Part shown: positions 10,643 to 61,325 of the stretch, one piece after another
How the letters are laid out: each line of letters begins with the position of its first letter
Position numbering within the stretch: position 1 is the first letter of the stretch
Assembly: GCA_964533415.1 (NCBI GenBank)
Contig: CAZHLV010000085.1
Location: forward strand, 628 to 64,627
Direction of reading: 5' to 3'
Length of the DNA: 64,000 nt
Source: an uncultured Hyphomicrobiales bacterium
Lineage (GTDB): Bacteria > Pseudomonadota > Alphaproteobacteria > Rhizobiales > BM303
The notes under the pieces: model-generated
Seen by the model: the letters and a program-made list of their open reading frames with translations, nothing else
Database searches by the model: none
What the model was told of the DNA's origin: nothing
Position numbers and translations under genes: made by a program

Positions 10643-10659
10643 GATTGTTATCCTCCCCT

Positions 10660-29641: not shown

Positions 29642-29780
29642 GATTTGGCTTCCCGTTTGTTTTTACAATTCAGCCTATCAGAAATATCCCCGGCTTTGGA
29701 ACCCTGAATGGATCATCCAGGTGAGGTTTATCCTTCCCGTATTGACAGGCTTCGGTTTGCTCTGTACGGATCGTGGAGAT

Positions 29781-29998
29781 GGTTCCTTTGCCGGTGCAAG
29801 CTGGATGAGGATAATAGGGAACACGGTGAGGCGCGTTTTGCCGATGCCGTGGCTGCCCCCGCAACTGTGAGCGACGAGTTGCCGGTCCGAAAGACCACTG
29901 GATATCCGGGAATAACGGATTCCGGGAAGGTCAGGATTGGCGGCGATGAAGCGCAAGCCAGGAGACCTGCCATCTTTAAATCGCCATTGCGATGAACC
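29781..29998 (+). promoter_or_regulatory. Cobalamin (B12) riboswitch
   Basis: Core aatagggaacacggtgagg...gctgcccccgcaactgtgagcg and B12 box aagccaggagacctgcc at 29955-29971. The ends ggttc (29781) and gaacc (29994) can close P1. Confidence 0.85.
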
Positions 29999-30050: not shown

Positions 30051-30099
30051 TTCTCCTTTTCGCAATGGCTTGAACCTTGTTGAAGGATGTTAAGGAGAA
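30051..30099 (+). promoter_or_regulatory. Putative anti-SD/SD sequestering pair of the riboswitch expression platform
   Basis: ttctcctt (30051-30058) is complementary to the SD aaggagaa (30092-30099), which lies 5 nt upstream of the ATG at 30104. Confidence 0.5.
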
Positions 30100-30103
30100 A
30101 GAT

Positions 30104-30781
30104 ATGCATATTGAACCGGGAATTGTTCAGGGCGCAAAGATTTTTGCAAGCTATGGAACGGCGGCCGCTTCGCTTGGTTACACGGCGAAGCTGGTTATGA
30201 ATTCGGTGAGAAAGGACGGGCTTGTCTCGCTGGCTGCCCGAAGCGCCATGGCAACGGTGCTGGTATTTTGCTATTTTGAGGTTCTTCCTCATTACCCGAT
30301 CGGCGTATCGGAGGTGCATCTTATCATGGGATCGACCCTGTTCCTGATCCTTGGCCTGGCGCCTGCCGCGATTGGCCTTGCGGCGGGTCTGCTCATTCAG
30401 GGTCTCTTTTTTGCGCCTTTCGATCTGCCGCAATACGGCATCAACGTGACAACACTTCTGGCGCCGCTCTTTGCCATGAGCCTGCTGGCCCAAAAGGTCA
30501 TCCCGCAAAATGTCGCCTACAAAGATCTGAAATATTCTCAGGCCCTGGCGCTCTCAACCGCCTATCAGGGCGGGATTGTAGCCTGGGTGGCGTTCTGGGC
30601 GTTTTATGGCCAGGGCTTTGGCAGTGCAAATATGGCCCAGGTCCTGACCTTCGGTTCGGCCTATATGACGGTTATCATCCTGGAGCCGCTCGTGGACTTG
30701 GCGGTGCTGGCCGGGGCCAAGCTTCTTTATGGCCTGAAAGACAGCGGCATGGTGGAAAAACGCCTCTATTCAGCCGCCTGA
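30104..30781 (+). CDS. Solitary CbiM/ECF-S-component-like membrane protein (cobalt or cobamide uptake candidate)
   Basis: Part of ORF 30077..30781. The ATG at 30104 follows AAGGAG. The N-terminus MHIEPG resembles the CbiM MHIxEG motif. The protein is polytopic and I see no cbiN/Q/O genes nearby. Confidence 0.7.
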   Translation: MHIEPGIVQGAKIFASYGTAAASLGYTAKLVMNSVRKDGLVSLAARSAMATVLVFCYFEVLPHYPIGVSEVHLIMGSTLFLILGLAPAAIGLAAGLLIQGLFFAPFDLPQYGINVTTLLAPLFAMSLLAQKVIPQNVAYKDLKYSQALALSTAYQGGIVAWVAFWAFYGQGFGSANMAQVLTFGSAYMTVIILEPLVDLAVLAGAKLLYGLKDSGMVEKRLYSAA

Positions 30782-31166: not shown

Positions 31167-31709
31167 ATGCGATCACCTGTGTTTGTGCGTCTGGCGGAAG
31201 GGACAGCGAGCGTCAACAAGCGCCGTTTTGCCCTGACCATGGCGGGGATTTTCGTTGTCTGGATGGCGCTTGCGGGAAAACTGACGCTGGCTGAAATCCT
31301 GGTGGGGCTGGCGGTTTCGGGTGGTGTTGCGCTGCTGAGCCAGAGCCATTTGTCGATGCTGGATGATCTGAAGCTTTCGGTATCCCTCCCTTTTGATTTG
31401 CTTCGCTATTTCGCGGTGTTTTTCTGGGCGCTGTTGCGGGCCAACCTTGACGTGGCCCGGCGCGTGGCTGCGCCGCGTGTGCAGATCAATCCGGCTATTG
31501 TCGAAGTTCATACCGAACTGAAATCGGATCTTGGAAAATTATGGCTGGCCAATTCCATTACCCTCACCCCCGGTACTTTATGTGTTGATGTCGTTGGCGA
31601 AACGCTCAAGGTCCACTGGATTGATATTTCCCCGGGCGCGGATATCGAACATGCCACCCGCGAGATCGCCGCCCGGTTTGAAGGGCTGCTGAAGGAGTTT
31701 TTGCAATGA
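31167..31709 (+). CDS. MrpE/MnhE-family antiporter subunit (MbxA-position)
   Basis: 180 aa. MAGIFVVWMALAGKLTLAEILVGLAVSG... is typical of the MnhE N-terminus. The start could be later (ATG at 31239). Confidence 0.7.
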   Translation: MRSPVFVRLAEGTASVNKRRFALTMAGIFVVWMALAGKLTLAEILVGLAVSGGVALLSQSHLSMLDDLKLSVSLPFDLLRYFAVFFWALLRANLDVARRVAAPRVQINPAIVEVHTELKSDLGKLWLANSITLTPGTLCVDVVGETLKVHWIDISPGADIEHATREIAARFEGLLKEFLQ

Positions 31710-31990
31710 TCGCTCTGGATTTGAGCTTTTTGGGCGGGTTTGCATTTCTTTTGGTATTGCTGGCCATTGTGCTGGCGGCGGCGCGGTTGCTGATGGGGCC
31801 ATCCATTCCAGACCGGGTTGTGGCAGCAGATGTGCTGGGGGTTATCACCACGGCGGGGCTGGTGTGGCTGGCCAGTGCGCTTGATAACGCTATTTATCTC
31901 GATATTGCGCTGGTTTATGGCGCGCTGGCCTTTGTCGGCGTAGTCGCCATTGCCCGGGCATTGGAGAGCAACAAGGGTAACAAGGGTTAG
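31706..31990 (+). CDS. MrpF/MnhF-family subunit (MbxB-position)
   Basis: 94 aa with 3 TM segments and a PSIPDRVVAADVLG motif typical of MrpF. ATGA overlap with the upstream gene. Confidence 0.75.
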   Translation: MIALDLSFLGGFAFLLVLLAIVLAAARLLMGPSIPDRVVAADVLGVITTAGLVWLASALDNAIYLDIALVYGALAFVGVVAIARALESNKGNKG

Positions 31991-31999
31991 GGGCGGCGC

Positions 32000-32308
32000 A
32001 TGGAAATCATTGGTGATCTGTTTTTCCTGATCGGCGGCATCTTTTTGTTCATGGGTTCGCTGGGACTGGTGCGTATGCCGGATGTTTTCAACCGCATTCA
32101 GGCCGGGGCCAAATCGGCAACGCTGGGCTCGCTGGGATTGATACTCGGCGTATTCTTTTATCACCCGGACTGGTGGGCCAAGCTGGCGATCATTGCCATG
32201 TTCGTGCTGATTACCTCGCCGGTGGGCTCCTCCACCATCGCGCGGGCGGCGCTGAGCATGGGGATTAGGCCCTGGGCGACACGCTCACGCGAAGGAGAGG
32301 GCGAATGA
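32000..32308 (+). CDS. MrpG/MnhG-family subunit (MbxC-position)
   Basis: 102 aa. GSLGLVRMPDVFNRIQAGAKSATLG is typical of MnhG. Confidence 0.8.
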   Translation: MEIIGDLFFLIGGIFLFMGSLGLVRMPDVFNRIQAGAKSATLGSLGLILGVFFYHPDWWAKLAIIAMFVLITSPVGSSTIARAALSMGIRPWATRSREGEGE

Positions 32309-32568
32309 CCATTTTAATCACGCTGATTGTTGGTGTCATGCTTCTGGCAGCGGTGGCTGTCGTGGTGCTCCGCGGGTTTTTAGCCGCGGTTGCAGCGCTG
32401 GCGGCGGTTTCGCTGGCACTTTCGGTTTTGTTTGTGCTGCTGCGCGCGCCCGATGTGGCCCTGGCGGAAGCTGCGGTTGGGGCCGGGCTGTCGGGGGTTT
32501 TGCTGGCGCTCACCTTGCGCCGGGTCGGGTTGTGGCCGGGCGGATCTGCGCGGGAGGATGAATCATGA
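32305..32568 (+). CDS. DUF4040/MbhD-like small membrane subunit (MrpB N-terminal part; MbxD-position)
   Basis: 87 aa. LRAPDVALAEAAVGAGLSGVLL is typical of the MbhD/MnhB N-terminal domain. Confidence 0.7.
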   Translation: MTILITLIVGVMLLAAVAVVVLRGFLAAVAALAAVSLALSVLFVLLRAPDVALAEAAVGAGLSGVLLALTLRRVGLWPGGSAREDES

Positions 32569-33263
32569 AGGGATATGGCCATACCGCCGCAAGCTTGCTG
32601 TTTCTGACCGGTCTTGGAATCTTGCTGATGGCCTTGCTTCAGGCGCTGCCCTTTGGCCATGCACCCATGCAGGTGGGGCAGGCGATCGTGGCTGCCGCGC
32701 CGGGGGATACGGGGGCGGATAATATCGTTACGGCGATTTTGCTGGGCTATCGCGGGCTGGATACGCTGGGCGAGGTGACGATCTTGTTTGTTGCCGCGTC
32801 TGCCGCCGGGATGGTGCTGGGCAGCGCCCGGCGCGGTGAGGCGCAGGCGATAAATGCCGGTTTTATCTTGCATAGCGCGGCTTATCTGCTGTTTCCCTTC
32901 CTGCTGGTTCTGGGGGCATATATCGTGTTGCACGGGCATCTGACCCCGGGCGGCGGTTTCCAGGGCGGTGCCATTCTGGCGGCAGCGTTTTTTGTGCCGA
33001 TCCTGGCTTCACCCGCCAGCCCGTTCAACCATCGCACCGCGGTGCTGGTGGAAGGTTTTGCCGGAGCCGCCTTTATCATGATCGGGCTTTATTCCCTGGT
33101 CGGCGGTTCAGCGTTCCTGACCCCCTTCCTTGGCAAGGGGGCGGCGGGTTCACTGTTTTCCGCCGGTTCCCTGCCGCTGCTGTATCTGGCCATTGGCCTG
33201 AAAGTCGGCTCGGAGCTAGCCGGTCTGATGGCGAGGGTTTCGGGCGGGGAGGCAAGCTCATGA
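32565..33263 (+). CDS. MnhB-domain membrane subunit (MbxF-position)
   Basis: 232 aa with an NIVTAILLGYRGLDTLGEVTILFVA motif of the MnhB family. Confidence 0.75.
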   Translation: MKGYGHTAASLLFLTGLGILLMALLQALPFGHAPMQVGQAIVAAAPGDTGADNIVTAILLGYRGLDTLGEVTILFVAASAAGMVLGSARRGEAQAINAGFILHSAAYLLFPFLLVLGAYIVLHGHLTPGGGFQGGAILAAAFFVPILASPASPFNHRTAVLVEGFAGAAFIMIGLYSLVGGSAFLTPFLGKGAAGSLFSAGSLPLLYLAIGLKVGSELAGLMARVSGGEASS

Positions 33264-33667
33264 GCGCGGGTGCAGTTCTTTATGCCGGGGCTATCGGTCT
33301 TTTCCTGATCGGCTTTTACGCCATGGTGGCCGAGCGCCATCTCATTCGCAATATTCTCGGGCTGGCACTGGTGGAATCAGGCGTTAACCTGCTGCTGGTC
33401 GCGGTGGGCTTTCGCGATGATGCCGCCGCACCGATTCTCAAGGCCGGTCAAAGCGCGGGCGCCATGGTGGACCCGTTGCCGCAGGCGCTTGTTCTCACCG
33501 CCATTGTCATTGGTTTTGGCGTGCTGGCGCTGGCGCTGGCGCTGGTTGTGCGGGTTTACCAGGCTTATGGAACGCTTGATGCGCGCAAGGTTGCCCAGTT
33601 GATGCGGGCGGAAAATGCAGCTGGCGGGTTGCCGGCAGTCAAGCCTCAGGCGGGGGCAAAATCATGA
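33260..33667 (+). CDS. MrpC/MnhC/NuoK-like subunit (MbxG-position)
   Basis: 135 aa. LIRNILGLALVESGVNLLLV is a NuoK/MnhC hallmark, including the membrane-embedded Glu. Confidence 0.8.
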   Translation: MSAGAVLYAGAIGLFLIGFYAMVAERHLIRNILGLALVESGVNLLLVAVGFRDDAAAPILKAGQSAGAMVDPLPQALVLTAIVIGFGVLALALALVVRVYQAYGTLDARKVAQLMRAENAAGGLPAVKPQAGAKS

Positions 33668-35124
33668 ATACGGTTCCGCAGATTGTTTTTCCGGTGGTGA
33701 TCCCGCTCATTGCAGCGTTTCTCTTGCCGATCGCCCGGCGCTGTCATGGCGGGTTTGGCGATATATTCGGGCGCGCGGCGGTTTTTGTTACCTTTCTCGC
33801 CGCGGCCTTCCTGGCCTGGCATGTGGCTGGCAGCGGGCCGGTAAGCTCGGCAATCGGTGGCTTTAAGGCCCCGCTGGGAATCGTGTTTTATGCCGACAAC
33901 CTGGCCATGGCATTCGTGTTGCTGCTCAATATCGGTGTCTGGCTGTTCTGGCCTGAAAGCGAGCATAAGGGCGCAGGGGCACAAACCCTCATCCTTACCC
34001 TTCTGGGCGGCGGCGCGGGGCTGGTGCTGTCGGGCGATCTGTTCAATATCTTCGTGTTTTACGAGATCGTCGCGGTGACCTCTTACGGGCTGGCGGCAAG
34101 CGGAGGTTCGGCGGCGGGCTTTGGCGCATCCTTGCGGTATTTGCTGCTCAGCGCGCTGGGTTCATCGCTGGCGCTGATGGGAATTGCGTTGGTCTATGCC
34201 ACCGCCGGGACGCTTAACCTGGCTGACCTGGCGCTGCTTGCGCCGCATGTCCTCAGGGGTCCCATCGGGGCGGCGGCCTTCTTGCTGCTGCTGATCGGTT
34301 TTGGCGTCAAGGCGGAGCTGTTTCCGGTCAATTCCTGGGTGCCGGAGGTCTATGCCAGCGCCCCGGTGCGGGTAACCTCGCTTCTGGCGGGGATTGTCTC
34401 CAAGCTGGCGCTGATCGTGATCCTGCGTTTTCTGGTGCTGGTTTTCCCGATGCCTTCGGCTTACGGCTTGTTGCTCGTGATCGGGATCCTGGGTGTGCTG
34501 GCCGGTGAACTGGCGGCGTATCGTGCACGGGATCTCAATTCCACATTTGCCTGGTCGTCGATTGCCCAGCTTGGCGTGATCGCCATCGCGTTTTCGATTC
34601 CAGGCCCGGCGGGTATTGCGGCGGGTATTGCTCTTGCCCTGCACCACGCGGTGGTCAAACCGGCGTTTTTCCTCATCGCGGATAAATGGCGCGGGGATGT
34701 GCTGTTTCTGGGCGGCGGGGCCAAGGCGGCGCCCTTTGTCGCCGCCCTGTTTGTCCTGCTTTCGCTCTCCATCATCGGAATTCCGCCGCTGCCCGGCTTC
34801 TGGGCCAAATACCTGCTGCTTGATGCAGCATTTTCCTCCTCCTCCCCGGTCTATGGGCTGGCAGCGGCGGTTGTTCTTGCCGGGGCCGTGATAGAGGCGG
34901 CCTATCTCTTCCGTGCCGCGGGCATTTTTTACGGACGCTCACCAACCGGTCGCGGCGTGCCGCTGTTTTTACTGGGTGAAATGGCCCCGGCCTTTGTGCT
35001 GGGCGCGGTTTTGATCGTTGCCATGCTCGCCCTGCCGGTTCTGGGGAGTTACATCACTTCCATGGCGGTGGAGGCGGCAGATGCCCCGGCCATTGCTTCA
35101 CAAATTCTCATTGGGGGGAAATGA
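33664..35124 (+). CDS. MrpD/NuoN-M-like proton-antiporter subunit (MbxH-position)
   Basis: 486 aa, polytopic, with a Proton_antipo_M-type core (FFVFYEIVAVTSYGL..., KAELFPVNSWVPEVY). Confidence 0.85.
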   Translation: MNTVPQIVFPVVIPLIAAFLLPIARRCHGGFGDIFGRAAVFVTFLAAAFLAWHVAGSGPVSSAIGGFKAPLGIVFYADNLAMAFVLLLNIGVWLFWPESEHKGAGAQTLILTLLGGGAGLVLSGDLFNIFVFYEIVAVTSYGLAASGGSAAGFGASLRYLLLSALGSSLALMGIALVYATAGTLNLADLALLAPHVLRGPIGAAAFLLLLIGFGVKAELFPVNSWVPEVYASAPVRVTSLLAGIVSKLALIVILRFLVLVFPMPSAYGLLLVIGILGVLAGELAAYRARDLNSTFAWSSIAQLGVIAIAFSIPGPAGIAAGIALALHHAVVKPAFFLIADKWRGDVLFLGGGAKAAPFVAALFVLLSLSIIGIPPLPGFWAKYLLLDAAFSSSSPVYGLAAAVVLAGAVIEAAYLFRAAGIFYGRSPTGRGVPLFLLGEMAPAFVLGAVLIVAMLALPVLGSYITSMAVEAADAPAIASQILIGGK

Positions 35125-35128
35125 TCTC

Positions 35129-37009
35129 ATGAGTCTTCTTGATATCCTCCTTGTTCTCTCTTTGCTTCTGACCGGCGGGCTTCTCATCTGGGGCCGTTTG
35201 CCCGGAGCAGGCTGGTTTGCCACCGTGGTTTATGCGTTTATGCTGGGTCTTGTGGCCATGGTCGGCATGCAGCTGGATGGCGGGACCGCCGCGATTCCTT
35301 CAAACCTTGGGTTTAGCGTTCTTGGCCAGGACATGAGCTGGCGGCTTGACGGGCTTGGCTGGTTCTTTGCCCTGTTGAGCGTTGGCGCGGCGTTTTTTGC
35401 AAGCTGGTATGCGAGCGGCGAATGGGGGGCCAGGCAAAAGCGTATCGGCATGCAGCATGGTTTGCTGGCGCTTAATGTGCTGGCCATGTTGCTGCTGCTC
35501 TCCAGCGGCGATCTGCTGAGCCTGTTCATCGGCTGGGAACTGGTGAGCTGGGCGGCATTTGTCATGATGACGCAAGGCGGCGGCGTGGCAATTGCGGCGG
35601 CTTACCGCTACATGATCTACGCGCTGGCCGGGGCCATGGCGGTGTTCGCCGGGATCATGCTGGTGCATAATGTGACCGGCGGATTTGGTTTTGCCGATCT
35701 GCATGCCGCCATCCCGGCCATGTCGGCGGGGCGGCTCTGGGTGCTGTTTGGCCTGTTTGCCGCCGGGTTCGGCGTCAAGATGGCGCTGATGCCGTTTCAC
35801 CTGTGGCAGGCTCCGGCCTATTCGGAAACCCCCGGCGCGTCTTCGGCCTTCTTGAACGCGGTTTCGGCGCGCATGGGGCTGTTTGCGCTTATCCTGGTGC
35901 TGGTCAAGCTGATCGGTCTGGGGGCGCTTGGCTCTCTTGCCATCCCCTTCACCTTCATGAGCGCCAAGAGCCTGTTGATGTGGGTGGCGGCAATCACCAT
36001 GGTGGTGCCGACCTTTATCGCGCTGATGCAGACCGATGCGCGGATGCTGCTCACCTGGCACGGTATCGGGCAAGGCGGCTACATGCTGCTGGGCGTTCTG
36101 GTGGGCACCTCGCTGGGCACGGCGGGCGGATTGCTGCATATCTTCAATTACGCCACCTATCAGGCGGCGCTGTTCCTGGCGGTAACGGCGGTTATCCACC
36201 GCGCCGGAACCTCGGATCTCGATGAGCTTGGCGGGCTGATTACCCGTATGCCATGGACCTATGTCACCTTGTTGATGGGCATTATCGGCCTAGCCGGTCT
36301 GCCGCCGATGAACGGGTTTGTCTCCAAGTGGATGATCTACAAGTCCCTGCTTGATGGCGGTCAGCCCCTGCTTTTGATTATGGCTTTTGCCGGCACGCTG
36401 GGAACGATCCTGAGCGTTTACAAGCTCATTCACAATATCTTCCTCGGGCAACTCAGGCGCGAGCATCAAGACCTCAAGGAAGCCCCGGTTTCCATGGTTC
36501 TGCCGATGCTGATTCTGGCGGGGATCGGTTTTGTCACCGGTTTCATGCCCGGCCTGGCGCTCGATATCACCGATATTGCCCAAAGGGCGATTGGCGGGGA
36601 CAGGCTTGCCCATCATCTGGGCGGCGTGGTTCTGGCCACGGGATCGCTCAACATGCTCTGGGTGGTCGGGGTACTGATCGGGGCGATTGGCGTTGGCGCG
36701 TTGATCTTCTACCTGCTCGGCAACCGGCGCCGGGAAGTGCACCAGTATGACAATTATGCCGGTGGGCATTTCCTCTCGGCCGATATCCGTTACCATTTCA
36801 GCCACGAGTTTTATCCCGGTCTGGCGCGGGTGATCGGCCCGTGGTATCGCGGCTCAATCGTGCGGGCCGAGCAGGGGATCGGCATATTTGTGAATGTGGC
36901 GGGCGATCTGTGGCAGGCGGTGTTCAAGGTTGCCTATACGCCGCTTTACATGCTGCTTGCCGTTGTGCTTGGCCTCATTCTTACCGGAACCGGGGGGATT
37001 GCCCTATGA
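35129..37009 (+). CDS. Second MrpD/MrpA/NuoL-like antiporter subunit with C-terminal extension (MbxH'-position)
   Basis: Part of ORF 35018..37009, with the start at MSLLDILLVL (ATG at 35129). The core contains LFIGWELVSWAAFVMM and KMALMPFHLWQAPAY. A tail of about 110 aa ends in one further TM segment. Confidence 0.8.
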   Translation: MSLLDILLVLSLLLTGGLLIWGRLPGAGWFATVVYAFMLGLVAMVGMQLDGGTAAIPSNLGFSVLGQDMSWRLDGLGWFFALLSVGAAFFASWYASGEWGARQKRIGMQHGLLALNVLAMLLLLSSGDLLSLFIGWELVSWAAFVMMTQGGGVAIAAAYRYMIYALAGAMAVFAGIMLVHNVTGGFGFADLHAAIPAMSAGRLWVLFGLFAAGFGVKMALMPFHLWQAPAYSETPGASSAFLNAVSARMGLFALILVLVKLIGLGALGSLAIPFTFMSAKSLLMWVAAITMVVPTFIALMQTDARMLLTWHGIGQGGYMLLGVLVGTSLGTAGGLLHIFNYATYQAALFLAVTAVIHRAGTSDLDELGGLITRMPWTYVTLLMGIIGLAGLPPMNGFVSKWMIYKSLLDGGQPLLLIMAFAGTLGTILSVYKLIHNIFLGQLRREHQDLKEAPVSMVLPMLILAGIGFVTGFMPGLALDITDIAQRAIGGDRLAHHLGGVVLATGSLNMLWVVGVLIGAIGVGALIFYLLGNRRREVHQYDNYAGGHFLSADIRYHFSHEFYPGLARVIGPWYRGSIVRAEQGIGIFVNVAGDLWQAVFKVAYTPLYMLLAVVLGLILTGTGGIAL

Positions 37010-37902
37010 TGACCTATGTGGCCGATTTCATCTTCATGCCGCTGATTGCCTTTGTCACCGGTCTGGGTCTCGTGCTGATGGCGCGCCGGGTGCGGGCCAA
37101 GATCGAGCGCCGGGTTGGCCCGCCGGTGTTGCAGCCGGTCTACGATATCGTCAAGCTTTATGCCAAGAAGACGCAAATCTCGCACGGGATCATGCATGAT
37201 CTGTCCATCATGATGCTGCTGGGCGGTTTTTTCACGGCGGAGATTTTCCTGCCCGTGCCGGGCTTTGACGGGCTTGCCGGGGAAGGCGATCTGATTACGC
37301 TGATTTATATCATGATGGTGCCGATGCTTGGCCTTGCGCTCGGGGTTGGCTCCTGCGCCAATCCGAACGGGTCTATCGGCATCTCCCGCGCGCTTACCGC
37401 GATGCTGGCCTATGATATCCCGTTTATTATCGCGGTCACCGGCGCCTGCATGGCTTATGGCACCACCAATCTGATCGAGATCGTGCAGATCCAGCAGGCG
37501 GGCGGACCGGCAAGCTGGGGTGCGGCGACCATGCCGCTTCTGGCCTTTGGAGGGTTGCTGGCGGTGCACGGCATGATGGGCAAGGAGCCGTTTGAGATTT
37601 ACATCGCGCCAGCCGAGATCGCCACCGGCCCGATGGTCGAGATGAGCGGCAAATATATGGGCGCGCTGTTCATCATGCAGTGTTTCCAGCTTTACACCAT
37701 CGGTGTCATTTACACGACCTTGTTCCTGGGCGGCGGTGAGAACTGGCCGTTCTTCCTCGCCAAGGTGTTTGGCGTGGTGTTCATCTCGGTGGCGGTGACC
37801 AATGTCTATGGCCGCTTCAAGACCGATACGGTGATCCGCTGGATGTGGAAATGGCCGACCGGGATCGCCCTTGCGGGTCTGGCGCTGGTGATGGCGAATT
37901 AG
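37006..37902 (+). CDS. NuoH/HycD/MbhM-like membrane subunit (MbxM-position)
   Basis: Part of ORF 36841..37902, with the start at MMTYVADF (ATG at 37006, ATGA overlap). RRVGPPVLQPVYDIVKLYAKK is typical of the NuoH family. Confidence 0.85.
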   Translation: MMTYVADFIFMPLIAFVTGLGLVLMARRVRAKIERRVGPPVLQPVYDIVKLYAKKTQISHGIMHDLSIMMLLGGFFTAEIFLPVPGFDGLAGEGDLITLIYIMMVPMLGLALGVGSCANPNGSIGISRALTAMLAYDIPFIIAVTGACMAYGTTNLIEIVQIQQAGGPASWGAATMPLLAFGGLLAVHGMMGKEPFEIYIAPAEIATGPMVEMSGKYMGALFIMQCFQLYTIGVIYTTLFLGGGENWPFFLAKVFGVVFISVAVTNVYGRFKTDTVIRWMWKWPTGIALAGLALVMAN

Positions 37903-37916
37903 GAAGGATAACAACA

Positions 37917-38663
37917 ATGAGTGACAAGCTTCCCGTCGTAGAAGATCAGCCCGAGGTCTGCCGCACTGTGGATGCCAGGGAGCGTTCATTGTGGACCAGG
38001 GTGATGGACCGGTTCGCCGATCACTGCCGCGCCCGCTCGCTTTTCGTGCTGCATTACTGCACCGGCTGCGGGGCGATCGAGCTGCCTCCCACCATAACCT
38101 CGCGCTTTGACATGGAGCGGGTCGGCATCTCGCCCATGGTGACGCCGCGCCAGGCGGATATCCTGCTGATTACCGGGTATCTTTCGGTCAAGACCTTGAA
38201 GCGGGTGATCTTGTCTTATGAGCAGATGCAGTCACCCAAATATGTGATCGGTTTTGGCTCCTGCACCATTAATGGCGGTATGTACTGGAACTCTTACGCC
38301 ACGGTGAAACGGCTGGACCAGTATATCCCGGCGGATCTGTTCATCGCCGGCTGCATGCCGCGGCCAGAAGCGGTGCAGCAGGTGCTGCTCAAGCTGATGG
38401 AGGATATTGATGCGGGCCGCGCCAGGGGCTGGCAGGATTATTACAAGAACTATGATCGTTATCTTGGCAACCAGCAGGCGCTGTTTGGGCCAAGCTGGCA
38501 CACGCCCACCGATGTGATCGCCGAGGCAAAGCATTATGGCTATCTGGCCGAAGGCACCACCGGGATTCATACGGACCTGCTGCTGGAGCGCAAGGAATAT
38601 GCCCTTGACCGTGTGCCGGAGGACTATCCCGAGCGCGGAGAAAACGAGAGGTTTTTGCCATGA
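37917..38663 (+). CDS. NuoB/[NiFe]-hydrogenase group-4 small-subunit-like Fe-S protein (MbxJ-position)
   Basis: The start at 37917 follows GGAAGGA. All four cluster cysteines are present: YCTGCGAIE, GSCTINGG and AGCMPRPE. There is a C-terminal extension of roughly 90 aa. Confidence 0.85.
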   Translation: MSDKLPVVEDQPEVCRTVDARERSLWTRVMDRFADHCRARSLFVLHYCTGCGAIELPPTITSRFDMERVGISPMVTPRQADILLITGYLSVKTLKRVILSYEQMQSPKYVIGFGSCTINGGMYWNSYATVKRLDQYIPADLFIAGCMPRPEAVQQVLLKLMEDIDAGRARGWQDYYKNYDRYLGNQQALFGPSWHTPTDVIAEAKHYGYLAEGTTGIHTDLLLERKEYALDRVPEDYPERGENERFLP

Positions 38664-39184
38664 GCATTCCTGCAAAACTTGAGGATGTCCTGCATGAAAT
38701 GCCGGGAATCAAGGTGCGGACAACAAATGACCGGCGGGTGCGGGTTGATCTTTCCCCCGATACCCTGCCCGCCTTGCTGGAGATTTTGAAAGGGCGGCTG
38801 GGCTATTGCCATCTTTCGGCGATTTCCTGCGTGGACTGGATGGAGACGGACCAGTTCGAGCTGGTTTATCATGTCTGGTCGCACATGCTAAAAACCATGG
38901 TTTCGGCGCATATCTTCATCTCGCGCGATCCGGGGCAGTTTATCTCGGTTTACGACATTCATACCCCGGCAGGCTTTTTCGAGCGGGATATCCACGAGAT
39001 GTTCGGGGTGCATTTTGAAGGCGCGCCCAATCTTGGCAAGTTCATCCTGACGAGCTGGGGCGGACCGCCGCCGATGCTCAAGGACTTCAATACCCGCGAA
39101 TATGTCGAGAAGACCTTTGACTGGGTTCAGTACAGCCCGGACTGGCTGAAAGACATTGAGGCCAAGGGCGGGGGGATCGAATAA
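38660..39184 (+). CDS. NuoC/30-kDa-subunit-like protein (MbxK-position)
   Basis: 174 aa with the FERDIHEMFGVHFEGAPN hallmark. Confidence 0.85.
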   Translation: MSIPAKLEDVLHEMPGIKVRTTNDRRVRVDLSPDTLPALLEILKGRLGYCHLSAISCVDWMETDQFELVYHVWSHMLKTMVSAHIFISRDPGQFISVYDIHTPAGFFERDIHEMFGVHFEGAPNLGKFILTSWGGPPPMLKDFNTREYVEKTFDWVQYSPDWLKDIEAKGGGIE

Positions 39185-40326
39185 TGCGTCCTGAAAACTA
39201 CCGCCCCGTCAAGCATCCGCCAAGCCATGAATACGAGTTGTATTTTGGTCCCAACCATCCGGGGATCGAGGGTAATTATGCCATCCGGGTGCGCCTGAAG
39301 GGTGATGTCATTATCGAGGCGATCGCCGATGGCGGCTATCTGCACCGTGGTTTTGAAAAGATCATGGAAGACCGGCTGTGGATCCAGAATGTGGCGCTGG
39401 TGCCGCGCATTTGCGTGCCCGATCCGGTGCCGATGGAAGAGACCTATTCGCGCGCTGTCGAGATGATCGGCGGGCTTGAGGTTCCCGAACGCGCCCAGTG
39501 GATCCGGGTGATGCTGCTGGAGATGTCGCGCATTTGCGCCCATCTGTTCACCTTTGGCGGCAATGCCGCCACCATCGGGCTTTACACCAACATGTTCTGG
39601 GGCGTGACCATGCGCGATTATTTCCTCGATCTGTTCGAGGAAGTCACCGGGGCGCGGATCTATCACATGTTCATCACGCCCGGCGGGGTGCGGCGTGATT
39701 TGCCGGAAGGGTTTTTGGGGCGTTTGTCTGACCTGCTGGATGAGCTGGAGCGGCGCACGCCGGAGTTTGAGGATCTGTTCTTTGAAAGCGCGGTGGTGAT
39801 AAACCGGGCCAGTGGCACCGGGATCATCACCCAGGAACAGGCGCTTTCATGGGGGGTGACGGGCCCCAATCTGCGCGCCTGTGATCTTCCTATCGATCTG
39901 CGCCGGGATGATCCTTATCTGGTTTATCCCGAGCTTGAGTTTGATGTCATCACTCAAGAGAACGGTGATGCGCTGGCGCGCATGATGGTGCGGCGCGGCG
40001 AGGTGATCCAGTCGATCCGCATCCTGCGCCAGGTGATCGAGCGGCTGCCCCTTGTTGGCGGACCGGTCCGGGCGCCCCTGCCCAACCCGCTGGCCTGGAA
40101 TCTCCCCGTGGGCGAGGCTTATGCCCGTACCGAATCCTCAAAAGGCGAGACGGCCTTTTACGTGGTTTCCGATGGCGGCCCGCGGCCCTACCGGGTGCAT
40201 GTGCGCGGGGCCTCTTCCATGCATGCGGTGCAGGTGCTGGAAAAACTGCTGGTCGGGGCGCGAATCGAGGATATCGCCCAGATCATGTTCTCGCTGGATG
40301 CCTGCCCGCCGGAGGTTGATCGTTAA
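39184..40326 (+). CDS. NuoD/[NiFe]-hydrogenase large-subunit-like protein with degenerate Ni-Fe site (MbxL-position)
   Basis: 380 aa containing GYLHRGFEKIME. The N-terminal motif reads PRICVPD (C77, D80) and the C-terminal motif reads LDACPPEVDR-stop (C374, E377). Confidence 0.85.
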   Translation: MRPENYRPVKHPPSHEYELYFGPNHPGIEGNYAIRVRLKGDVIIEAIADGGYLHRGFEKIMEDRLWIQNVALVPRICVPDPVPMEETYSRAVEMIGGLEVPERAQWIRVMLLEMSRICAHLFTFGGNAATIGLYTNMFWGVTMRDYFLDLFEEVTGARIYHMFITPGGVRRDLPEGFLGRLSDLLDELERRTPEFEDLFFESAVVINRASGTGIITQEQALSWGVTGPNLRACDLPIDLRRDDPYLVYPELEFDVITQENGDALARMMVRRGEVIQSIRILRQVIERLPLVGGPVRAPLPNPLAWNLPVGEAYARTESSKGETAFYVVSDGGPRPYRVHVRGASSMHAVQVLEKLLVGARIEDIAQIMFSLDACPPEVDR

Positions 40327-40327
40327 A

Positions 40328-42154
40328 ATGAGTGATATCAGACCAAAATACAAAGGCTCGCTGCTGCGCCCCATGAAAGCGCTCTCGTTCCTGTTTCGTG
40401 AACCGGCGACCTTGCCCATGGAACCGCGTGAGGCTTCTGAAATCTATCGCGGGTTTCACCTGAATGATTGGGAAAAGTGCATAGGTTGCGGCACATGCGG
40501 CGAGATTTGCGATAATTTTGCCATCCGCATGGCGAAGATTCCCGGTCTGCCCAGCGATCCGGCCAGGGGGGTCAAACCGCGCCGTCCGGTGATTGATTAT
40601 GGCCGGTGTTGCTGGTGTGCGCTGTGCGTGGATATCTGCCCCACCGGCTCGCTCTCCATGTCGCGTGAATATATTCATGTGAGCCGCGATCTCGACAGCT
40701 ACCTGATCCTGCCTGACGAAGCGGGCATGCACGCAGAAAACTTCCAGAAAGGCTGGGCAAAATCAGAGCATTCCGATCTGCTGGATCTGACCCGCCGCGC
40801 CATGGGCGAACTTGAACCTGAGGCCCGGAGTGATAATTTTGATGAAGTCACGAAAGGCTTTGATGCGCAAACGGCGCTGCTGGAGGCCTCGCGCTGCATC
40901 CAGTGCGGCATGTGTCACGAGGCCTGTCCGGCCCATATGCATGCGCCCGAATATATCCGCGCCATCTGGGATGGGGACATGGAGCGGGCGGTGGAAGAGA
41001 TTTACCGCACCAATCCCTTCCCGCATGTGTGCGGGCGCATTTGCACCCATCGTTGCGAGAGCGCCTGTTCCATCGGGCGGCGCGGCGATCCGGTGGCGAT
41101 CCGCTGGCTCAAGCGTTTTGCCATGGATCAGGTGGAGCCGGAAAAGGTGCAGGAGATTGCGCTGAAAAACGGTATTGCCAGATCCACGGGGAAAAAGGTT
41201 GCGGTGATCGGGGCGGGGCCTGCCGGACTGACGGCAGCCTTTGATCTGGCCAGGCTGGGGCACAAGGTGCGTGTTTATGAAGCGCGCCCGGAGCCGGGCG
41301 GCATGATGCGCTATGGCATACCCGAATACCGCCTGCCCTATGACAAGCTTGATGCCGATATCGAGGTGATCCGCAAGGCCGGGGTTGAGATCAGGTGCAA
41401 TGTACGGCTTGGTGAAAATGAGGATTTGCAGAACTTGCGCAGCCGCAACGATGCGGTGCTGATTTCCACCGGGCTCAATCTGGGCCGCTCGACGCGTATT
41501 CCCGGTTCCGATCACCCGCAGGTAGCCTCGGCCGTTGACCTGCTGGCGCGCATTACGCTGGGCGAGAATATCAAGGCCCCCAAACGCATTGCAGTCATTG
41601 GCGGCGGTAATGTGGCGTTTGATATTGCCCGCTCCATGGCGCGCTTGCAGCGCCAGCAGCACGGCAAGGTCAACATGACGGTGCTGGCGCTGGAAGAGCG
41701 CGGCGCCATGCTGGCGGATGAGGCGGAGGTGATCGAATCCGCCGATGAAGGCATCGTGCTCATCAATGGGCGCGGTCCCAGGCAGGTCAGGATCGAAGAC
41801 GGGAAAATGATTGGCCTGGAGACGGTCAATTGCCTGTCAATCTTTGACGAGGAAGGGCGCTTTCATCCCAGATATGATGAAAGTGACCTGATCCTGCATG
41901 ATGTGGACATGGTGATCGAGGCCATCGGGCAGATGTCGGACACAAGCTGGCTTGGCGAGGAACTGACCGAAGCGCTGGAGTGGCAGCGCGGGCGTATCGC
42001 GGTTGATGATGACGGGCGCACCTCCGAGAGCTGGCTGTGGGCGGCAGGCGATCTGGTGCGCGGGCCCGATGTCATTCACGCGGTGGCAGCAGGACACAAG
42101 GCGGCAAGCAGCATCCACGGCGCGATTACCGGCAAGAAGGGAGCTTCACGATGA
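40328..42154 (+). CDS. Fusion protein: NuoI/MbhN-like 2x[4Fe-4S] domain plus GltD/NfnB/SudA-like FAD/NAD(P)H oxidoreductase domain
   Basis: Part of ORF 40052..42154, with the start at MSDIRPKY (ATG at 40328). The Fe-S motifs are CIGCGTCGEIC, CCWCALCVDICP, CIQCGMCHEACP and CGRICTHRCESAC. These are followed by VAVIGAGPAGLTAA, GGMMRYGIPEYRLP and IAVIGGGNVAFD. Confidence 0.85.
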   Translation: MSDIRPKYKGSLLRPMKALSFLFREPATLPMEPREASEIYRGFHLNDWEKCIGCGTCGEICDNFAIRMAKIPGLPSDPARGVKPRRPVIDYGRCCWCALCVDICPTGSLSMSREYIHVSRDLDSYLILPDEAGMHAENFQKGWAKSEHSDLLDLTRRAMGELEPEARSDNFDEVTKGFDAQTALLEASRCIQCGMCHEACPAHMHAPEYIRAIWDGDMERAVEEIYRTNPFPHVCGRICTHRCESACSIGRRGDPVAIRWLKRFAMDQVEPEKVQEIALKNGIARSTGKKVAVIGAGPAGLTAAFDLARLGHKVRVYEARPEPGGMMRYGIPEYRLPYDKLDADIEVIRKAGVEIRCNVRLGENEDLQNLRSRNDAVLISTGLNLGRSTRIPGSDHPQVASAVDLLARITLGENIKAPKRIAVIGGGNVAFDIARSMARLQRQQHGKVNMTVLALEERGAMLADEAEVIESADEGIVLINGRGPRQVRIEDGKMIGLETVNCLSIFDEEGRFHPRYDESDLILHDVDMVIEAIGQMSDTSWLGEELTEALEWQRGRIAVDDDGRTSESWLWAAGDLVRGPDVIHAVAAGHKAASSIHGAITGKKGASR

Positions 42155-42663
42155 GCCAGCATGGCGAGGGGCACAAGGGCGCCCGTGAGCGTCTGGAGGG
42201 CATGAAGTCTTTGGAAGATATTCTTGAAACCGCCATGTCGTTTGAGGAAACCGCCGGGGCGTTTTATTCGGCGCTGAAAGACAAGGTGGGAAAACCGCTG
42301 CGCGAGCTTGTCGGGGAACTGGCTCTGGAAGAAGCAGAGCATTACCGCCTGTTCAAGGCGCTCAGGGACAACCCGGATATTGCCGGGCAATTATCCAGCC
42401 AGGTGCAGGCCCCGGCAGAGGATCATGATTTTTCCAGGTATATCCTGCTGCCGGACCTGGGAGAACATCCGGACGATCAGGCGATCTTGCAATATGCGCT
42501 GGCGCGCGAGGATGCGGCGGCCAAGCAATATGCCGACCTGGCGCAAACCACGCCGGAAGGACCGGTGCGCGACCTGTTCGCTTTCCTTGCCAGGGAAGAA
42601 ATCGAGCACAAGGCGGAGCTTGAAAAACGCTACTATCAACTGGTCCATGGCGGCGGCGTGTAG
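42151..42663 (+). CDS. Rubrerythrin/erythrin-like ferritin-fold diiron protein (no rubredoxin domain)
   Basis: Part of ORF 42037..42663. The ATG at 42151 overlaps the upstream stop (ATGA). The E-x6-Y ... ExxH pattern occurs twice: FEETAGAFY with EEAEH, and AREDAAAKQY with EEIEH. Confidence 0.7.
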   Translation: MSQHGEGHKGARERLEGMKSLEDILETAMSFEETAGAFYSALKDKVGKPLRELVGELALEEAEHYRLFKALRDNPDIAGQLSSQVQAPAEDHDFSRYILLPDLGEHPDDQAILQYALAREDAAAKQYADLAQTTPEGPVRDLFAFLAREEIEHKAELEKRYYQLVHGGGV

Positions 42664-54912: not shown

Positions 54913-55941
54913 ATGGGTTACAAGGTTGCTCTTGTTGGCGCGACGGGAAATGTCGGCCGCGAGATGATGAACATTCTGGATGAACGCGGCTTTCCGGTCG
55001 ATGAGCTTGTCCCGCTGGCCTCGGCGCGTTCTCAGGGCCGCGATGTGTCTTTTGGCGATACAACCCTGAAAGTGCAGAACCTGGAAAATTATGATTTCAC
55101 CGGCACCGATATCGCCCTGCTTTCCGCCGGCGGCTCGATCTCGAAGGAATGGGCGCCGAAAATCGCCGCTCAAGGCTGCGTGGTAATCGACAACTCCTCC
55201 GCCTGGCGCTATGACAGCGACATTCCGCTGATCGTGCCGGAAGTCAACCCGGATGATATCACCGGATTTTCCAGGCGCGGCATCATCGCCAACCCCAATT
55301 GCTCCACCGCCCAACTTCTCGTGGCCCTGAAACCCCTGCATGACGAAGCCACCATCAAGCGGGTTGTCATTTCCACCTACCAGTCCGTGTCCGGCGCCGG
55401 CAAGGCCGCCATGGACGAGTTGTGGAACCAGACCAAGGGCATCTTTGTCACCGATTCGCCAAGCCCGGAAAATTTCACCAAGCAGATTGCTTTCAACGTC
55501 ATCCCCCATATCGACGTGTTCATGGAAGATGGCTACACGAAAGAAGAATGGAAGCTGATGGCGGAGACCAAGAAAATGCTTGATCCCAATATCAGGCTCA
55601 GCGCCACGGCGGTGCGGGTTCCGGTCTTTGTCGGCCACGGCGAGGCGGTCAATATCGAGTTTGAAAACCCGATCACGCCGGATCGCGCCCGCGAGATCCT
55701 GCGCGAGGCTCCCGGCTGCATGGTCATCGACAAGCGCGAAGATGGCGGCTATGTCACCCCGGTGGAATGCGTTGGCGATTATGCCACTTTCGTTTCGCGC
55801 ATCCGCGAGGACGCAACGGTGGAAAACGGCCTTAACATCTGGGTTGTTTCGGACAACCTGCGCAAGGGCGCAGCCCTGAACACCGTCCAGATCGCCGAGT
55901 TGCTCATCAACCGCGGCTTGCTCAAAAAAGACGCGGGCTAA
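54913..55941 (+). CDS. asd: Aspartate-semialdehyde dehydrogenase
   Basis: MGYKVALVGATGNVGREM N-terminus and active-site region IANPNCSTAQ. Confidence 0.93.
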   Translation: MGYKVALVGATGNVGREMMNILDERGFPVDELVPLASARSQGRDVSFGDTTLKVQNLENYDFTGTDIALLSAGGSISKEWAPKIAAQGCVVIDNSSAWRYDSDIPLIVPEVNPDDITGFSRRGIIANPNCSTAQLLVALKPLHDEATIKRVVISTYQSVSGAGKAAMDELWNQTKGIFVTDSPSPENFTKQIAFNVIPHIDVFMEDGYTKEEWKLMAETKKMLDPNIRLSATAVRVPVFVGHGEAVNIEFENPITPDRAREILREAPGCMVIDKREDGGYVTPVECVGDYATFVSRIREDATVENGLNIWVVSDNLRKGAALNTVQIAELLINRGLLKKDAG

Positions 55942-56974
55942 GCGTAACCACGCTGTTCTCTTCATCTTTCAGGTGAATACGCGCCTTCATGGCCGGGTTG
56001 AGATAGATCCGGCCATGATCGTCCACCAGCATGGCATATCTCACCCCCATGCGCTTGGCGATGCGGAACCAGTCTTCAGGTCCGGCCACCGAAAGCGCCG
56101 TGGCGGCGGCATCGGCATCGGCGCCACTGGTTCCGATCACGCTGGCCGAGACAATATGCTTCACCGGCCAGCCGGTGCGCGGATCGATGATATGCGAATA
56201 ACGCACCCCTTCATGTTCAAGGAAGCGCTCGTAATTGCCCGAAGTATAAAGCACCTCGCCGGGTTTCAGCTCAACGGTGGCAATCACGCCCCAGTTCTTG
56301 GGATGGCGAATCCCGGCGCGCCATGGCCGGTCAGAGTGAACCCCCATCACGTTGAGATCGCCGCCGGCGTTGAGGACCGCGTTCCTGATCCCGTGCGCTT
56401 TAAGCCGGATCACCGCCCGGTCCAGCGCCTCGCCCTTGGCAAAACCGCCAAAATCAAGGCTCACGTCTTTATTGCGCGAAGACACCTCATGCCCCTTGAT
56501 GACCAGATCCGCCACCTTTGGCCTTGAGGCCACCCAGGCCCTGATCGCCTCATAGGGCGGCGCGCGGCCCTTGGGCAGGTTATCGTCATGAAACCCCCAA
56601 TCGGCCACCAGCCCGCCGATTGCCGCGTTAAACAGCCCGTCACTTGTCCGTTCATAGCGCTGCGCCTGAAGCAGCAGCGGCAGCAGGAAATCACTCACTT
56701 GCACCGATTTGCCCGCCGCTATCGCCGCATTCAGGGAACTCAGTTCACCGGGTTTCCAGGCATGCCAGTCCTTGTGCATATGGCGAAATTCAGACCCGAC
56801 ATCTTTCAGCGCCGCCCGCGCGGTTGCCTTGTCCGAATCGCGGATGGTTATCTCGACAATCGTGCCAAAAACATAAAGTTTCTCGCGCAGTTCAGATTCA
56901 GGTTGCTTGCACCCGCCGGCAACCAGCAAAAAAACGAGACCAACAAGGATGCAACTAACGGATCTGGTCAGCAT
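55922..56974 (-). CDS. apbE: FAD:protein FMN transferase (ApbE family), lipoprotein
   Basis: Part of ORF 55922..57190, with the start at MLTRSVSCILVGLVFLLVAGGC (lipobox). The ApbE-like body includes NAGGDLNVMG and YSHIIDPRTG. Confidence 0.85.
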   Translation of the reverse strand: MLTRSVSCILVGLVFLLVAGGCKQPESELREKLYVFGTIVEITIRDSDKATARAALKDVGSEFRHMHKDWHAWKPGELSSLNAAIAAGKSVQVSDFLLPLLLQAQRYERTSDGLFNAAIGGLVADWGFHDDNLPKGRAPPYEAIRAWVASRPKVADLVIKGHEVSSRNKDVSLDFGGFAKGEALDRAVIRLKAHGIRNAVLNAGGDLNVMGVHSDRPWRAGIRHPKNWGVIATVELKPGEVLYTSGNYERFLEHEGVRYSHIIDPRTGWPVKHIVSASVIGTSGADADAAATALSVAGPEDWFRIAKRMGVRYAMLVDDHGRIYLNPAMKARIHLKDEENSVVTLSPRLF

Positions 56975-57446
56975 AAGACTCCCCGGCGCGGCGCAAGAAT
57001 ACCGGTTTGAAGCGGTTGCCCTTCGCCCCGCGCAACCGCGAGCCGATCCAGAACCCCGCACCCAGTCCGGCAAAACCGGCAATTGCTGAAATACCGCCTC
57101 CATAACCGGCAGATGAAGCCGCAACCGCCCCCAGGAGCAACCCGGCCAGCGGCACCATATAGGCAAGAAGCGAAGCGCCAAGCAGGGCATGGTCAGACAG
57201 CCCGATCACGATACGATCTCCCACCCGCGCATCAAAGGTATTTTCAATACGCAGATCAACGCCCCGATCCTTGAAAAGCGAAGCCAACGAAGCCGTGCCG
57301 CACCCATGGGACACCGAACAGGATGAGCAGGTGGATTTGCGCTCGGCCTGCAAATAAGCCCAATGCGAATCATATCTGCGCACAACAGCATGGGATTCCA
57401 CCATATCTTGCAGGGGGGTGAGGCAATCTTGTGAAAATTCCGGCAT
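56955..57446 (-). CDS. rseC: RseC/MucC-family (SoxR-reducing-system) membrane protein
   Basis: 163 aa with a Cys-rich N-terminus (CSSCSVSHGCG) and two Gly-rich TM segments. It lies divergent to rnfA. Confidence 0.7.
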   Translation of the reverse strand: MPEFSQDCLTPLQDMVESHAVVRRYDSHWAYLQAERKSTCSSCSVSHGCGTASLASLFKDRGVDLRIENTFDARVGDRIVIGLSDHALLGASLLAYMVPLAGLLLGAVAASSAGYGGGISAIAGFAGLGAGFWIGSRLRGAKGNRFKPVFLRRAGESYADQIR

Positions 57447-57604: not shown

Positions 57605-58186
57605 ATGGAGAAATTTCTCATCATTCTTCTGGGAACGGCCCTCGTCAACAATGTTGTTCTGGTCCGTTTTCTCGGGCTTTGCCCGTTTATGGGGGTCTCC
57701 AACAAATACGGCGCCGCCGTGGGCATGGGAATGGCCACCACCTTTGTGCTCACCCTGGCGGCCTCGGCGAGCTGGTTGCTGGAAACCTATCTCCTGGAGC
57801 CGCTCGGGCTTGAGTTCCTGCGCATCTTGACCTTCATTCTGGTGATTGCCGCGGTGGTGCAGTTTACCGAGATCGCCATCCGCAAATTCTCCCCCGTCCT
57901 GTATCAGGTCCTGGGGATCTACCTGCCGCTGATTACCACGAACTGCGCGGTTCTGGGCATAGCCCTGCTCAATGTTCAGGAAGATCATACCTTTACCGAA
58001 AGCGTTTTGTTCGGCTTTGGCTCGGCTTTGGGCTTTACGCTGGTCATGTTGGTTTTTGCCGGGCTGCGGGAGCGGCTGGAACTTTCCAATGTTCCTGAAG
58101 CCTTCAAGGGCGTACCCATAGGGTTTGTCACGGCCGGGCTGTTATCCATGGCCTTCATGGGCTTTTCCGGATTGGTGGCAAACTAG
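57605..58186 (+). CDS. rnfA: Rnf electron-transport complex subunit A
   Basis: 193 aa ([27 protein letters not shown]). Confidence 0.93.
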
Positions 58187-61316: not shown

Positions 61317-61325
61317 GGGGGGTGA

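Follow-up and report, generated by a model that had tools for sequence, protein, structure and literature searches.

We studied an open reading frame (ORF) in a 64,000-nucleotide stretch of contig CAZHLV010000085.1 from an uncultured Hyphomicrobiales bacterium; this whole stretch is called the window below. The ORF, located at positions 39184-40326 of the positive strand, translates to 380 amino acids followed by a stop codon and codes for a large subunit of the NuoD/HycE family, of the MbsL type (Pfam PF00346, Complex1_49kDa, 1.1e-75, with a sub-threshold match only to NiFeSe_Hases). Two of its motifs correspond to a vestigial NiFe site according to translation and a MAFFT alignment: C77-V-P-D80 near the N-terminus (39412-39423, positive strand), covering ligand columns 1 and 2, and C374-P-P-E377 at the C-terminus (40303-40314, positive strand), covering columns 3 and 4. 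The C77 codon is at 39412-39414, inside LVPRICVPDPVP, with D80 three residues downstream (39421-39423), and the C374 codon is at 40303-40305, inside FSLDACPPEVDR-stop, with E377 three residues downstream. A third motif, H25-P-G-I-E29-G-N31 (39256-39276, positive strand), forms the beta1-beta2 loop in the MAFFT alignment; NHPGIEGN begins at residue 24 of the 380-residue protein and the E29 codon is at 39268-39270. The positions given for C77, D80, C374, E377 and NHPGIEGN in a preliminary description of this DNA, made from its letters alone, were all exact when the translation was repeated by script.

The closest solved relative of the target protein is MbsL, the large subunit of the membrane-bound sulfane reductase (MBS) of Pyrococcus furiosus, and not a hydrogenase or NuoD, because Protein Data Bank (PDB) entry 6u8y_L ranked first both in phmmer (E-value 3.5e-112, residues 15-380) and in Foldseek. 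The phmmer E-values for other solved relatives were 4.2e-76 (Nqo4), 7.8e-43 (MbhL) and 8.9e-33 (HycE), and identities were 48% with MbsL, 43% with Nqo4 (over aligned columns), 31% with MbhL and 28% with HycE. An AlphaFold2 model of the target as a monomer, built from an input alignment of 16 sequences, had a predicted local distance difference test score of 84.3 and a predicted template modelling (TM) score of 0.87; its best PDB match in Foldseek was again 6u8y_L (TM-scores 0.91/0.92, root-mean-square deviation 2.5 Å). The target belongs to the MbsL type, and its relation to the MbsL of P. furiosus is of orthologue grade. The MBS-like identity proposed in the preliminary description is supported by this closest relative and by the residue pattern described next.

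Group-4 [NiFe]-hydrogenases carry two motifs, L1 (RxCGxCxxxH) and L2 (DPCxxCxxR), which hold four Cys ligands. The target reads RICVPDPVPM and DACPPEVDR at these sites, i.e., two of the four Cys are absent, and it ends at R380, in the ...DR position, with no C-terminal processing extension. Column equivalence was determined in a MAFFT L-INS-i alignment of five proteins: the target, MbsL, MbhL and Nqo4 (the last three taken from the phmmer alignments), and Escherichia coli HycE from the annotated genome. In ligand column 1, C77 of the target aligned with C85 of MbsL, C68 of MbhL, C241 of HycE and D86 of Nqo4; in column 2, D80 aligned with E88, C71, C244 and H89 of the same proteins, in that order; in column 3, C374 with C385, C374, C531 and V403; and in column 4, E377 with D388, C377, C534 and D406. 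The quinone-His column held E29 in the target, E38 in MbsL, E20 in MbhL, D192 in HycE and H38 in Nqo4; the adjacent proton-relay column held G30, a gap, E21, E193 and G39; and the quinone-Tyr column held V78, V86, G69, G242 and Y87. The phmmer alignments, which are independent of MAFFT, gave the same equivalence for the NiFe columns, so that the placement of C77, D80, C374 and E377 in the ligand columns, on which the preliminary description had staked its interpretation, holds in both. Its claim that canonical NiFe ligation is impossible stands as well, with D80 and E377 where two Cys ligands belong, and what it had judged by eye, the loss of the quinone residues of complex I, is confirmed by E29 in place of Nqo4 H38 and V78 in place of Y87. 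Its statement that MbxL/MbsL keeps two of the four Cys is likewise correct: of the four NiFe Cys of MbhL, MbsL retains only C85 and C385, about 12 Å from the proximal cluster (Yu et al. 2020, PMC7684303).

The database label of the target protein is 'NADH-quinone oxidoreductase subunit D', and both this label and the strong Complex1_49kDa match would favor a quinone-reducing enzyme like complex I; a still-functional hydrogenase was weighed together with it. We consider either function extremely improbable, since the H38 and Y87 columns are occupied by E29 and V78, only two of the four NiFe ligands are present, the membrane arm encoded by the operon (see below) is of the Mrp type and not of the Nuo type, and no hyp or maturation-protease families were found by Pfam among the scanned ORFs of the 64-kb window.

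The motifs hardly varied among the 120 nearest database homologues (70-100% identity to the target), which came from Rhizobiales/Hyphomicrobiales, Kaistiaceae, Thiomargarita, Ca. Venteria, Chromatiales and other Pseudomonadota metagenome-assembled genomes (MAGs). PRICVPDP was present in 120/120, the C-terminal CPPE also in 120/120 (ACPPEVDR in 116 and ACPPE[IL]DR in 4), and HPGIEGN in 119/120. The Cys/Asp/Cys/Glu quartet, whose conservation had been left to be checked in the preliminary description, was kept in all 120, a conservation far beyond chance. For the wider superfamily we took the best 150 representatives of clusters at 50% identity. Nineteen of them, the true hydrogenases, had C-C-C-C; C-[DE]-C-[DE] was the reading in about a dozen of the clusters that scored best, and the many complex I-type clusters had D/N, S/A/G, V/I and E/D in the four columns. 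Nearly all the complex I NuoD representatives in this sample carried D or E in the fourth column; an acid there is thus near-universal outside the hydrogenases, and therefore E377 is no MBS-specific innovation.

A scan of GTDB species genomes revealed at least 80 related loci, in which the window proteins were mapped by tblastn and the L (NuoD-like) and B (NuoB-like) subunits were re-aligned; the counts that follow refer to the 80 loci listed. The window's own species was not among them, the best match having 79% identity. All four columns were covered in 79 loci, the remaining one (L026) being on a contig that ends early. The most frequent quartet patterns were CECE (32 loci), CDCE (26) and CECD (6), followed by AEYE (4), CEYE (3), NEVE (3), NETE (2) and one locus each of CDCD, NDAE, CDCG (L006, at a contig end) and CE-- (L026, truncated contig). 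Accordingly, C-[DE]-C-[DE] was present in 65 of the 79 loci with all four columns, and loci of the same clade as the window had C-D-C-E in 26/26 with all four columns, down to 59% identity. One or both Cys were replaced in 13/80 loci (L063-L065, L068, L070, L073, L076 and L078-L083), all with the same GltD-fused operon and all with both carboxylates kept; in them positions 1 and 3 tended to change jointly. Carboxylates in columns 2 and 4 were kept in 78/79 loci, the single exception being L006, whose match stops at the contig end. Given 78/79 for the carboxylates versus 13 loci with Cys loss, the acids are more conserved than the cysteines. Cys loss in Thermotogae is represented by one uncultured Thermotogae MAG (L070).

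Two of these loci need comment. L006 (DAOVTJ010000203.1, a Thiomargarita MAG) ends in SLGACRPGVDR at the extreme end of its contig, and its CDCG pattern is probably an assembly error and not a true variant. L026 (JAIVTC010000306.1) comes from a MAG labelled Bathyarchaeota and has a proteobacterial-type operon at 67% identity; it is probably a binning contaminant. The second column also covaried with the beta1-beta2 loop by clade: D in column 2 went with HPGIEGN (Glu), and E in column 2 with HPGI/VTGN (Thr), the exceptions being L029 (CDCE with Ser), L026 (E with Glu), L059 (CDCD with Thr) and the archaeal MbsL type. The covariation of D80 with E29 may reflect compensation between neighboring carboxylates. 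Within the proteobacterial/spirochaete clade, where D80 goes with E29, the Cys were invariant among the listed loci.

The pattern of Cys loss bears on two readings in which the quartet itself would be at work. According to the first, C77 and C374 would act as a redox-active dithiol/disulfide or persulfide relay, or as an electron or proton gate, aided by D80, E377 and E29. The two vestigial Cys of MBS, about 12 Å from its proximal cluster, had in fact been candidate polysulfide-reducing sites (PMC7684303), and both Cys are invariant in the window's clade. Yet the MbsL C85A/C385A mutant, like the MbsJ C25A mutant, keeps wild-type dimethyl trisulfide (DMTS) reductase activity (PMC7684303), and the patterns AEYE, CEYE, NEVE, NETE or NDAE occur in 13 loci that have the same operon, so we regard a relay of this kind as unlikely. 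The second reading, put forward as an alternative in the preliminary description, is that a Cys2(Asp/Glu)2 quartet binds another mononuclear metal (Fe, Zn, Ni or Co) in a catalytic or structural role. It has in its favor that the four side chains occupy the columns surrounding the Ni-Fe center of hydrogenases and are invariant in the clade, and that a CbiM-like gene of the Co/Ni transporter type (30077-30781) lies just upstream of the operon. Against it, the MBS mutant without both Cys is active (PMC7684303), the Cys are lost in 13/80 loci while the acids persist, the fourth-column acid also occurs throughout the metal-free complex I NuoD, and the MBS papers report no more than three [4Fe-4S] clusters in the peripheral arm. 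The CbiM-like gene was rejected as a metal supplier: it stands behind a cobalamin riboswitch, and no counterpart was found beside the operon in any of the 80 listed loci. A new metal site of this composition is thus disfavored and, in our estimation, very unlikely.

The target is gene 12 of a tightly packed operon of 14 genes on the positive strand (31167-42663). Gene boundaries were taken from the gene calls on the identical ENA metagenome contig, and families from Pfam and PDB searches. The operon begins with an MnhE/MrpE-like membrane subunit (31167-31709; PF01899 MNHE, 5.5e-37; gene call), followed by MrpF/PhaF-like (31706-31990; PF04066, 1.2e-15), MrpG/MnhG-like (32000-32308; PF03334, 7.1e-24), MbhD-like (32305-32568; PF13244 MbhD, 1.7e-16), MnhB/MbhE-like (32565-33263; PF04039, 1.8e-20, and PF20501, 3e-07) and NuoK/MrpC-like (33260-33667; PF00420, 2.5e-24) subunits. 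Next come an antiporter-like pump subunit of the MrpD/NuoN type, similar to MbsH (33664-35124; PF00361, 3.5e-47), a second one of 642 residues similar to MbsH' (35081-37009, start from the gene call; PF00361, 8.8e-45), and a NuoH-like membrane anchor of the peripheral arm, similar to MbsM (37006-37902; PF00146, 1.4e-47; gene call). The membrane arm is therefore of the full Mrp type by Pfam, with MrpE, F, G, B and C homologues, two pump subunits and a NuoH-like anchor. Directly upstream of the target are the genes for the MbsJ-like NuoB homologue expected to carry the proximal [4Fe-4S] cluster (37917-38663; 6u8y_J, 1.2e-61) and the MbsK-like NuoC homologue (38660-39184; PF00329, 2.8e-23). Downstream are a fusion subunit of 608 residues (40328-42154; assigned by PDB matches and by Pfam Fer4_20 and Pyr_redox_2) and, as last gene of the operon, a rubrerythrin-like di-iron protein of 170 residues (42151-42663; PF02915, 2.9e-11).

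The NuoB-like subunit has Cys at C48, C51, C116 and C146, equivalent to C25, C28, C93 and C123 of MbsJ, and aligns without gaps over 167 residues with MbsJ residues 6-172, the CTGC segment (C48-T-G-C51) included; judged by its sequence, it has the shortened Cys loop of the MbsJ type. The Cys equivalent to MbsJ C25 (C48 in the window) was Gly in 33/73 listed loci, with GTGC for CTGC (e.g., L031-L055, L063-L065, L073 and L080), which by sequence leaves three Cys for the proximal cluster. A three-Cys proximal cluster would therefore appear to be a family trait, and the frequent Gly in this column fits the structural result that MbsJ C25 is a non-ligand (PMC7684303).

The gene of the fusion subunit starts at ATG 40328. 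Residues 6-141 form an MbsN/NuoI-like domain for two [4Fe-4S] clusters (6u8y_N, 1.6e-26), and residues 158-603 form an NfnB/GltD-like domain for two more [4Fe-4S] clusters, FAD and NAD(P)H (4ylf_B, 3.7e-74; 5jca_L, 1.8e-72; GltD 6s6s_G, 2e-50); in all, the protein has four Cys motifs for [4Fe-4S] clusters and the glycine-rich motifs for flavin adenine dinucleotide (FAD) and NAD(P)H. Thus the MbsN-like domain does not stand alone, as it does in the archaeal type, but is fused to an NfnB/GltD-like flavoprotein, and because of this fusion the sequence suggests NAD(P)H, rather than free ferredoxin, as the probable redox partner of the complex. The rubrerythrin-like protein is ferritin-like, has two ExxH motifs and lacks a rubredoxin domain. 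The stop of the fusion gene and the start of the rubrerythrin-like gene share 4 nt, an overlap that points to translational coupling of the two genes, and the di-iron protein may guard the exposed cluster from peroxide.

The same flavoprotein is central to an older proposal for 'Mbx' complexes, in which the enzyme is a ferredoxin:NADP+ oxidoreductase: ferredoxin would dock on the MbsN-like domain and electrons would exit via the GltD-like flavoprotein while ions are pumped. This function was assumed for mbx-like operons in general (PMC4758237) and for that of Mesotoga (bioRxiv 10.1101/322537), and it would agree with the ferredoxin-linked enzymes in the same window, i.e., a tungsten-type aldehyde:ferredoxin oxidoreductase and an Rnf operon. 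However, the Mbx of P. furiosus itself has been re-assigned as a sulfane reductase, and the window already encodes Rnf for ferredoxin:NAD+ coupling. We further infer that a route from ferredoxin to FAD would bypass the proximal cluster and the pocket, leaving the L/J pocket and the vestigial residues without a substrate. In all complex I-type enzymes this pocket is the site coupled to pumping, an established mechanism. Strong conservation is also kept in the pocket itself, in the MbsJ-type motif and in the quartet. We therefore hold the ferredoxin:NADP+ model to be doubtful, though it retains a minor share of our expectation.

Gene order was shared widely. The order H-B-C-D-[MbsN::GltD] was found in 68/80 loci from many phyla, and the 12 apparent absences include some truncated contigs. 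Among its carriers were sulfur-oxidizing Gammaproteobacteria (Thiodiazotropha, Sedimenticola thiotaurini, Thiomargarita, Thiobacillaceae, Thiohalobacterales and Chromatiaceae) as well as Spirochaetes, Bacteroidales, Melioribacter, Thermotogae, Acidobacteria and others. The GltD part was missing in the archaeal loci, in Sulfurovum loci and in a few others, and a rubrerythrin-like gene was found downstream mainly in the proteobacterial clade.

From these data we propose, with a probability of roughly 0.8, that the target is the large subunit of an ion-translocating oxidoreductase, a bacterial complex of the Mrp-Mbx/MBS-like kind, that its quartet is the vestige of a group-4 NiFe site, and that catalysis occurs at the proximal cluster. 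Electrons would be exchanged between NAD(P)H and a pocket where the L, J and M subunits meet, by way of FAD, the four [4Fe-4S] clusters of the fusion subunit and the proximal [4Fe-4S] cluster in the NuoB-like protein. Catalysis would take place at this proximal cluster rather than at the two vestigial Cys. In MBS it is assigned to the open Fe of the proximal cluster, which has three Cys ligands only, because the MbsJ loop is three residues shorter than in the membrane-bound hydrogenase MBH (PMC7684303); in the window complex the cluster is likewise probably ligated by three Cys with one open Fe. The vestigial residues would probably have a structural or second-shell role. The most likely substrate would be sulfane sulfur or polysulfide, with turnover coupled to H+ or Na+ movement via the Mrp-like arm; such a sulfane reductase activity coupled to ion translocation is predicted by analogy with relatives. 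A link to sulfur is favored by the many homologues in sulfur-oxidizing Gammaproteobacteria among the listed loci. The potentials of NAD(P)H (about -320 mV) and of polysulfide/sulfide are close, and because of this the complex could run in either direction.

Several observations weigh against this proposal. The invariance of the quartet and E29 in the proteobacterial/spirochaete clade implies purifying selection for some role. With NAD(P)H in place of ferredoxin as donor the driving force would be small, which is awkward with two pump modules, and no obvious sulfur-metabolism genes are located next to the operon in the window. The lowest confidence in the AlphaFold2 model falls on residues 23-29 and 74-76, which form the loops of the pocket. 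The substrate, direction and ion of the GltD-fused bacterial complexes are all inferred. Finally, the published assays used the soluble C-MBS subcomplex and the model substrate DMTS, so that the two Cys may still matter for coupling or for turnover of the physiological substrate. One could go further and suppose that the invariant C77-D80-C374-E377, together with the clade-specific E29, is a working site, e.g., for sulfane/persulfide handling or proton gating, and that in sulfur oxidizers the complex linked to NAD(P)H might operate backwards. This we find improbable; if true, NAD(P)+ would receive electrons of sulfide or polysulfide at the expense of the ion-motive force, in support of CO2 fixation. 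Reverse electron flow would then have a new route, and the Cys-less lineages would be without the working site.

The remainder of the window contained other features. A cobalamin riboswitch (RF00174, 108.9 bits) at 29763-29988 of the positive strand is directly upstream of the CbiM-like ORF (30077-30781, positive strand), which stops 386 nt before the mbx-like operon; the adjacency of this gene and the operon is probably coincidental. The Rnf-type operon includes RnfA/E-like, RnfC, RnfD and RnfG-like genes with an adjoining ApbE flavin-transferase gene (57605-62674 on the positive strand and 55922-57190 on the negative strand), and with it the organism already has a ferredoxin:NAD+ ion pump. 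Within 7488-11208 of the negative strand is the tungsten-type aldehyde:ferredoxin oxidoreductase (614 residues, AFOR_N/AFOR_C), next to a poly-ferredoxin-like 4Fe-4S protein and a pyridine-nucleotide-disulfide oxidoreductase; this AorABC-like module is unusual for an apparent Hyphomicrobiales genome. The negative strand also carries a molybdopterin oxidoreductase of 809 residues with a Molybdopterin_N domain and, behind it, a protein bearing a domain of c-type cytochromes (14230-17718), as well as the sole tRNA of the window, tRNA-Ser(TGA) (19775-19864).

The half-lost NiFe site is thus a real and conserved signature of a documented family in a documented operon type, and no new kind of active site. 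Of the interpretation in the preliminary description, the non-NiFe, non-quinone and MBS-like character stood, and the weight and novelty given to it did not, as the pattern is a published family signature. The annotation 'NADH-quinone oxidoreductase subunit D' should be corrected to MbsL-type subunit of an Mrp-Mbx/MBS-like complex. Our survey adds, modestly, that the carboxylates outlast the Cys, that the Cys are invariant in the proteobacterial/spirochaete clade, and that Gly frequently takes the place of the non-ligand Cys in the NuoB-like subunit. On its own the finding matters little; the wider family of MBS-like complexes fused to an NAD(P)H flavoprotein, present in many bacterial phyla including sulfur-oxidizing symbionts, merits attention. 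The comparative pattern (acids more conserved than Cys, Cys to Gly in the NuoB-like subunit, Cys loss in several lineages) offers mutagenesis targets in cultivable carriers.

Compared with known systems, the target shares with MbhL and HycE (PDB 6CFW_L and 7Z0S_E) the fold, the position in the complex and the RxC.../...DxC...DR frameworks, and differs in having Asp and Glu for Cys in columns 2 and 4 and Gly30 in the column of MbhL E21. With Nqo4/NuoD (PDB 4HEA/2FUG, chain 4) it shares the fold, the column-4 acid (D406 in Nqo4) and the ...DR C-terminus; however, neither Cys survives in complex I (D86 and V403), which has H38 and Y87 for quinone, whereas the target keeps both Cys and has E29 and V78 in the quinone columns. 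The similarity to MbsL is closer: full-length homology, Cys in columns 1 and 3, and carboxylates in columns 2 and 4. MBS is without equivalents of Nqo4 H38/Y87 and of MbhL E21 (PMC7684303), and so is the target (E29, V78 and G30). Other shared traits are the MbsJ-type CTGC loop of the NuoB-like partner and the Mrp-type arm with two pump subunits. In contrast to MbsL, the acids are swapped (D80/E377 in the target versus E88/D388) and the beta1-beta2 loop is one residue longer (HPGIEGN versus HMATE-N). Relative to MBS, the counterpart of MbsN is joined to an NAD(P)H flavoprotein of the NfnB/GltD kind, the operon ends in a rubrerythrin-like gene, and the host is apparently a mesophilic alphaproteobacterium, judging from the nearest named homologues.

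The mbx-like operons of Thermotoga and proteobacteria show no substantive difference from that of the window. In them a gltD-related flavoprotein replaces NuoI, a rubrerythrin is often the last gene, and the NuoD homologues retain the first and the third of the NiFe Cys (positions 86 and 403 in Thermus numbering; Degli Esposti 2015, PMC4758237). Expression data exist for two relatives: mbxA of Thermotoga maritima was induced 4.4-fold by S0 (PMC9431562), and in the Riftia symbiont a 'putative Mrp-Mbx complex', its direction unknown, is expressed together with genes of the reductive tricarboxylic acid cycle (PMC11636981). The window operon matches the mbx-like type in gene order, in the gltD-related flavoprotein, in the terminal rubrerythrin and in the Cys columns.

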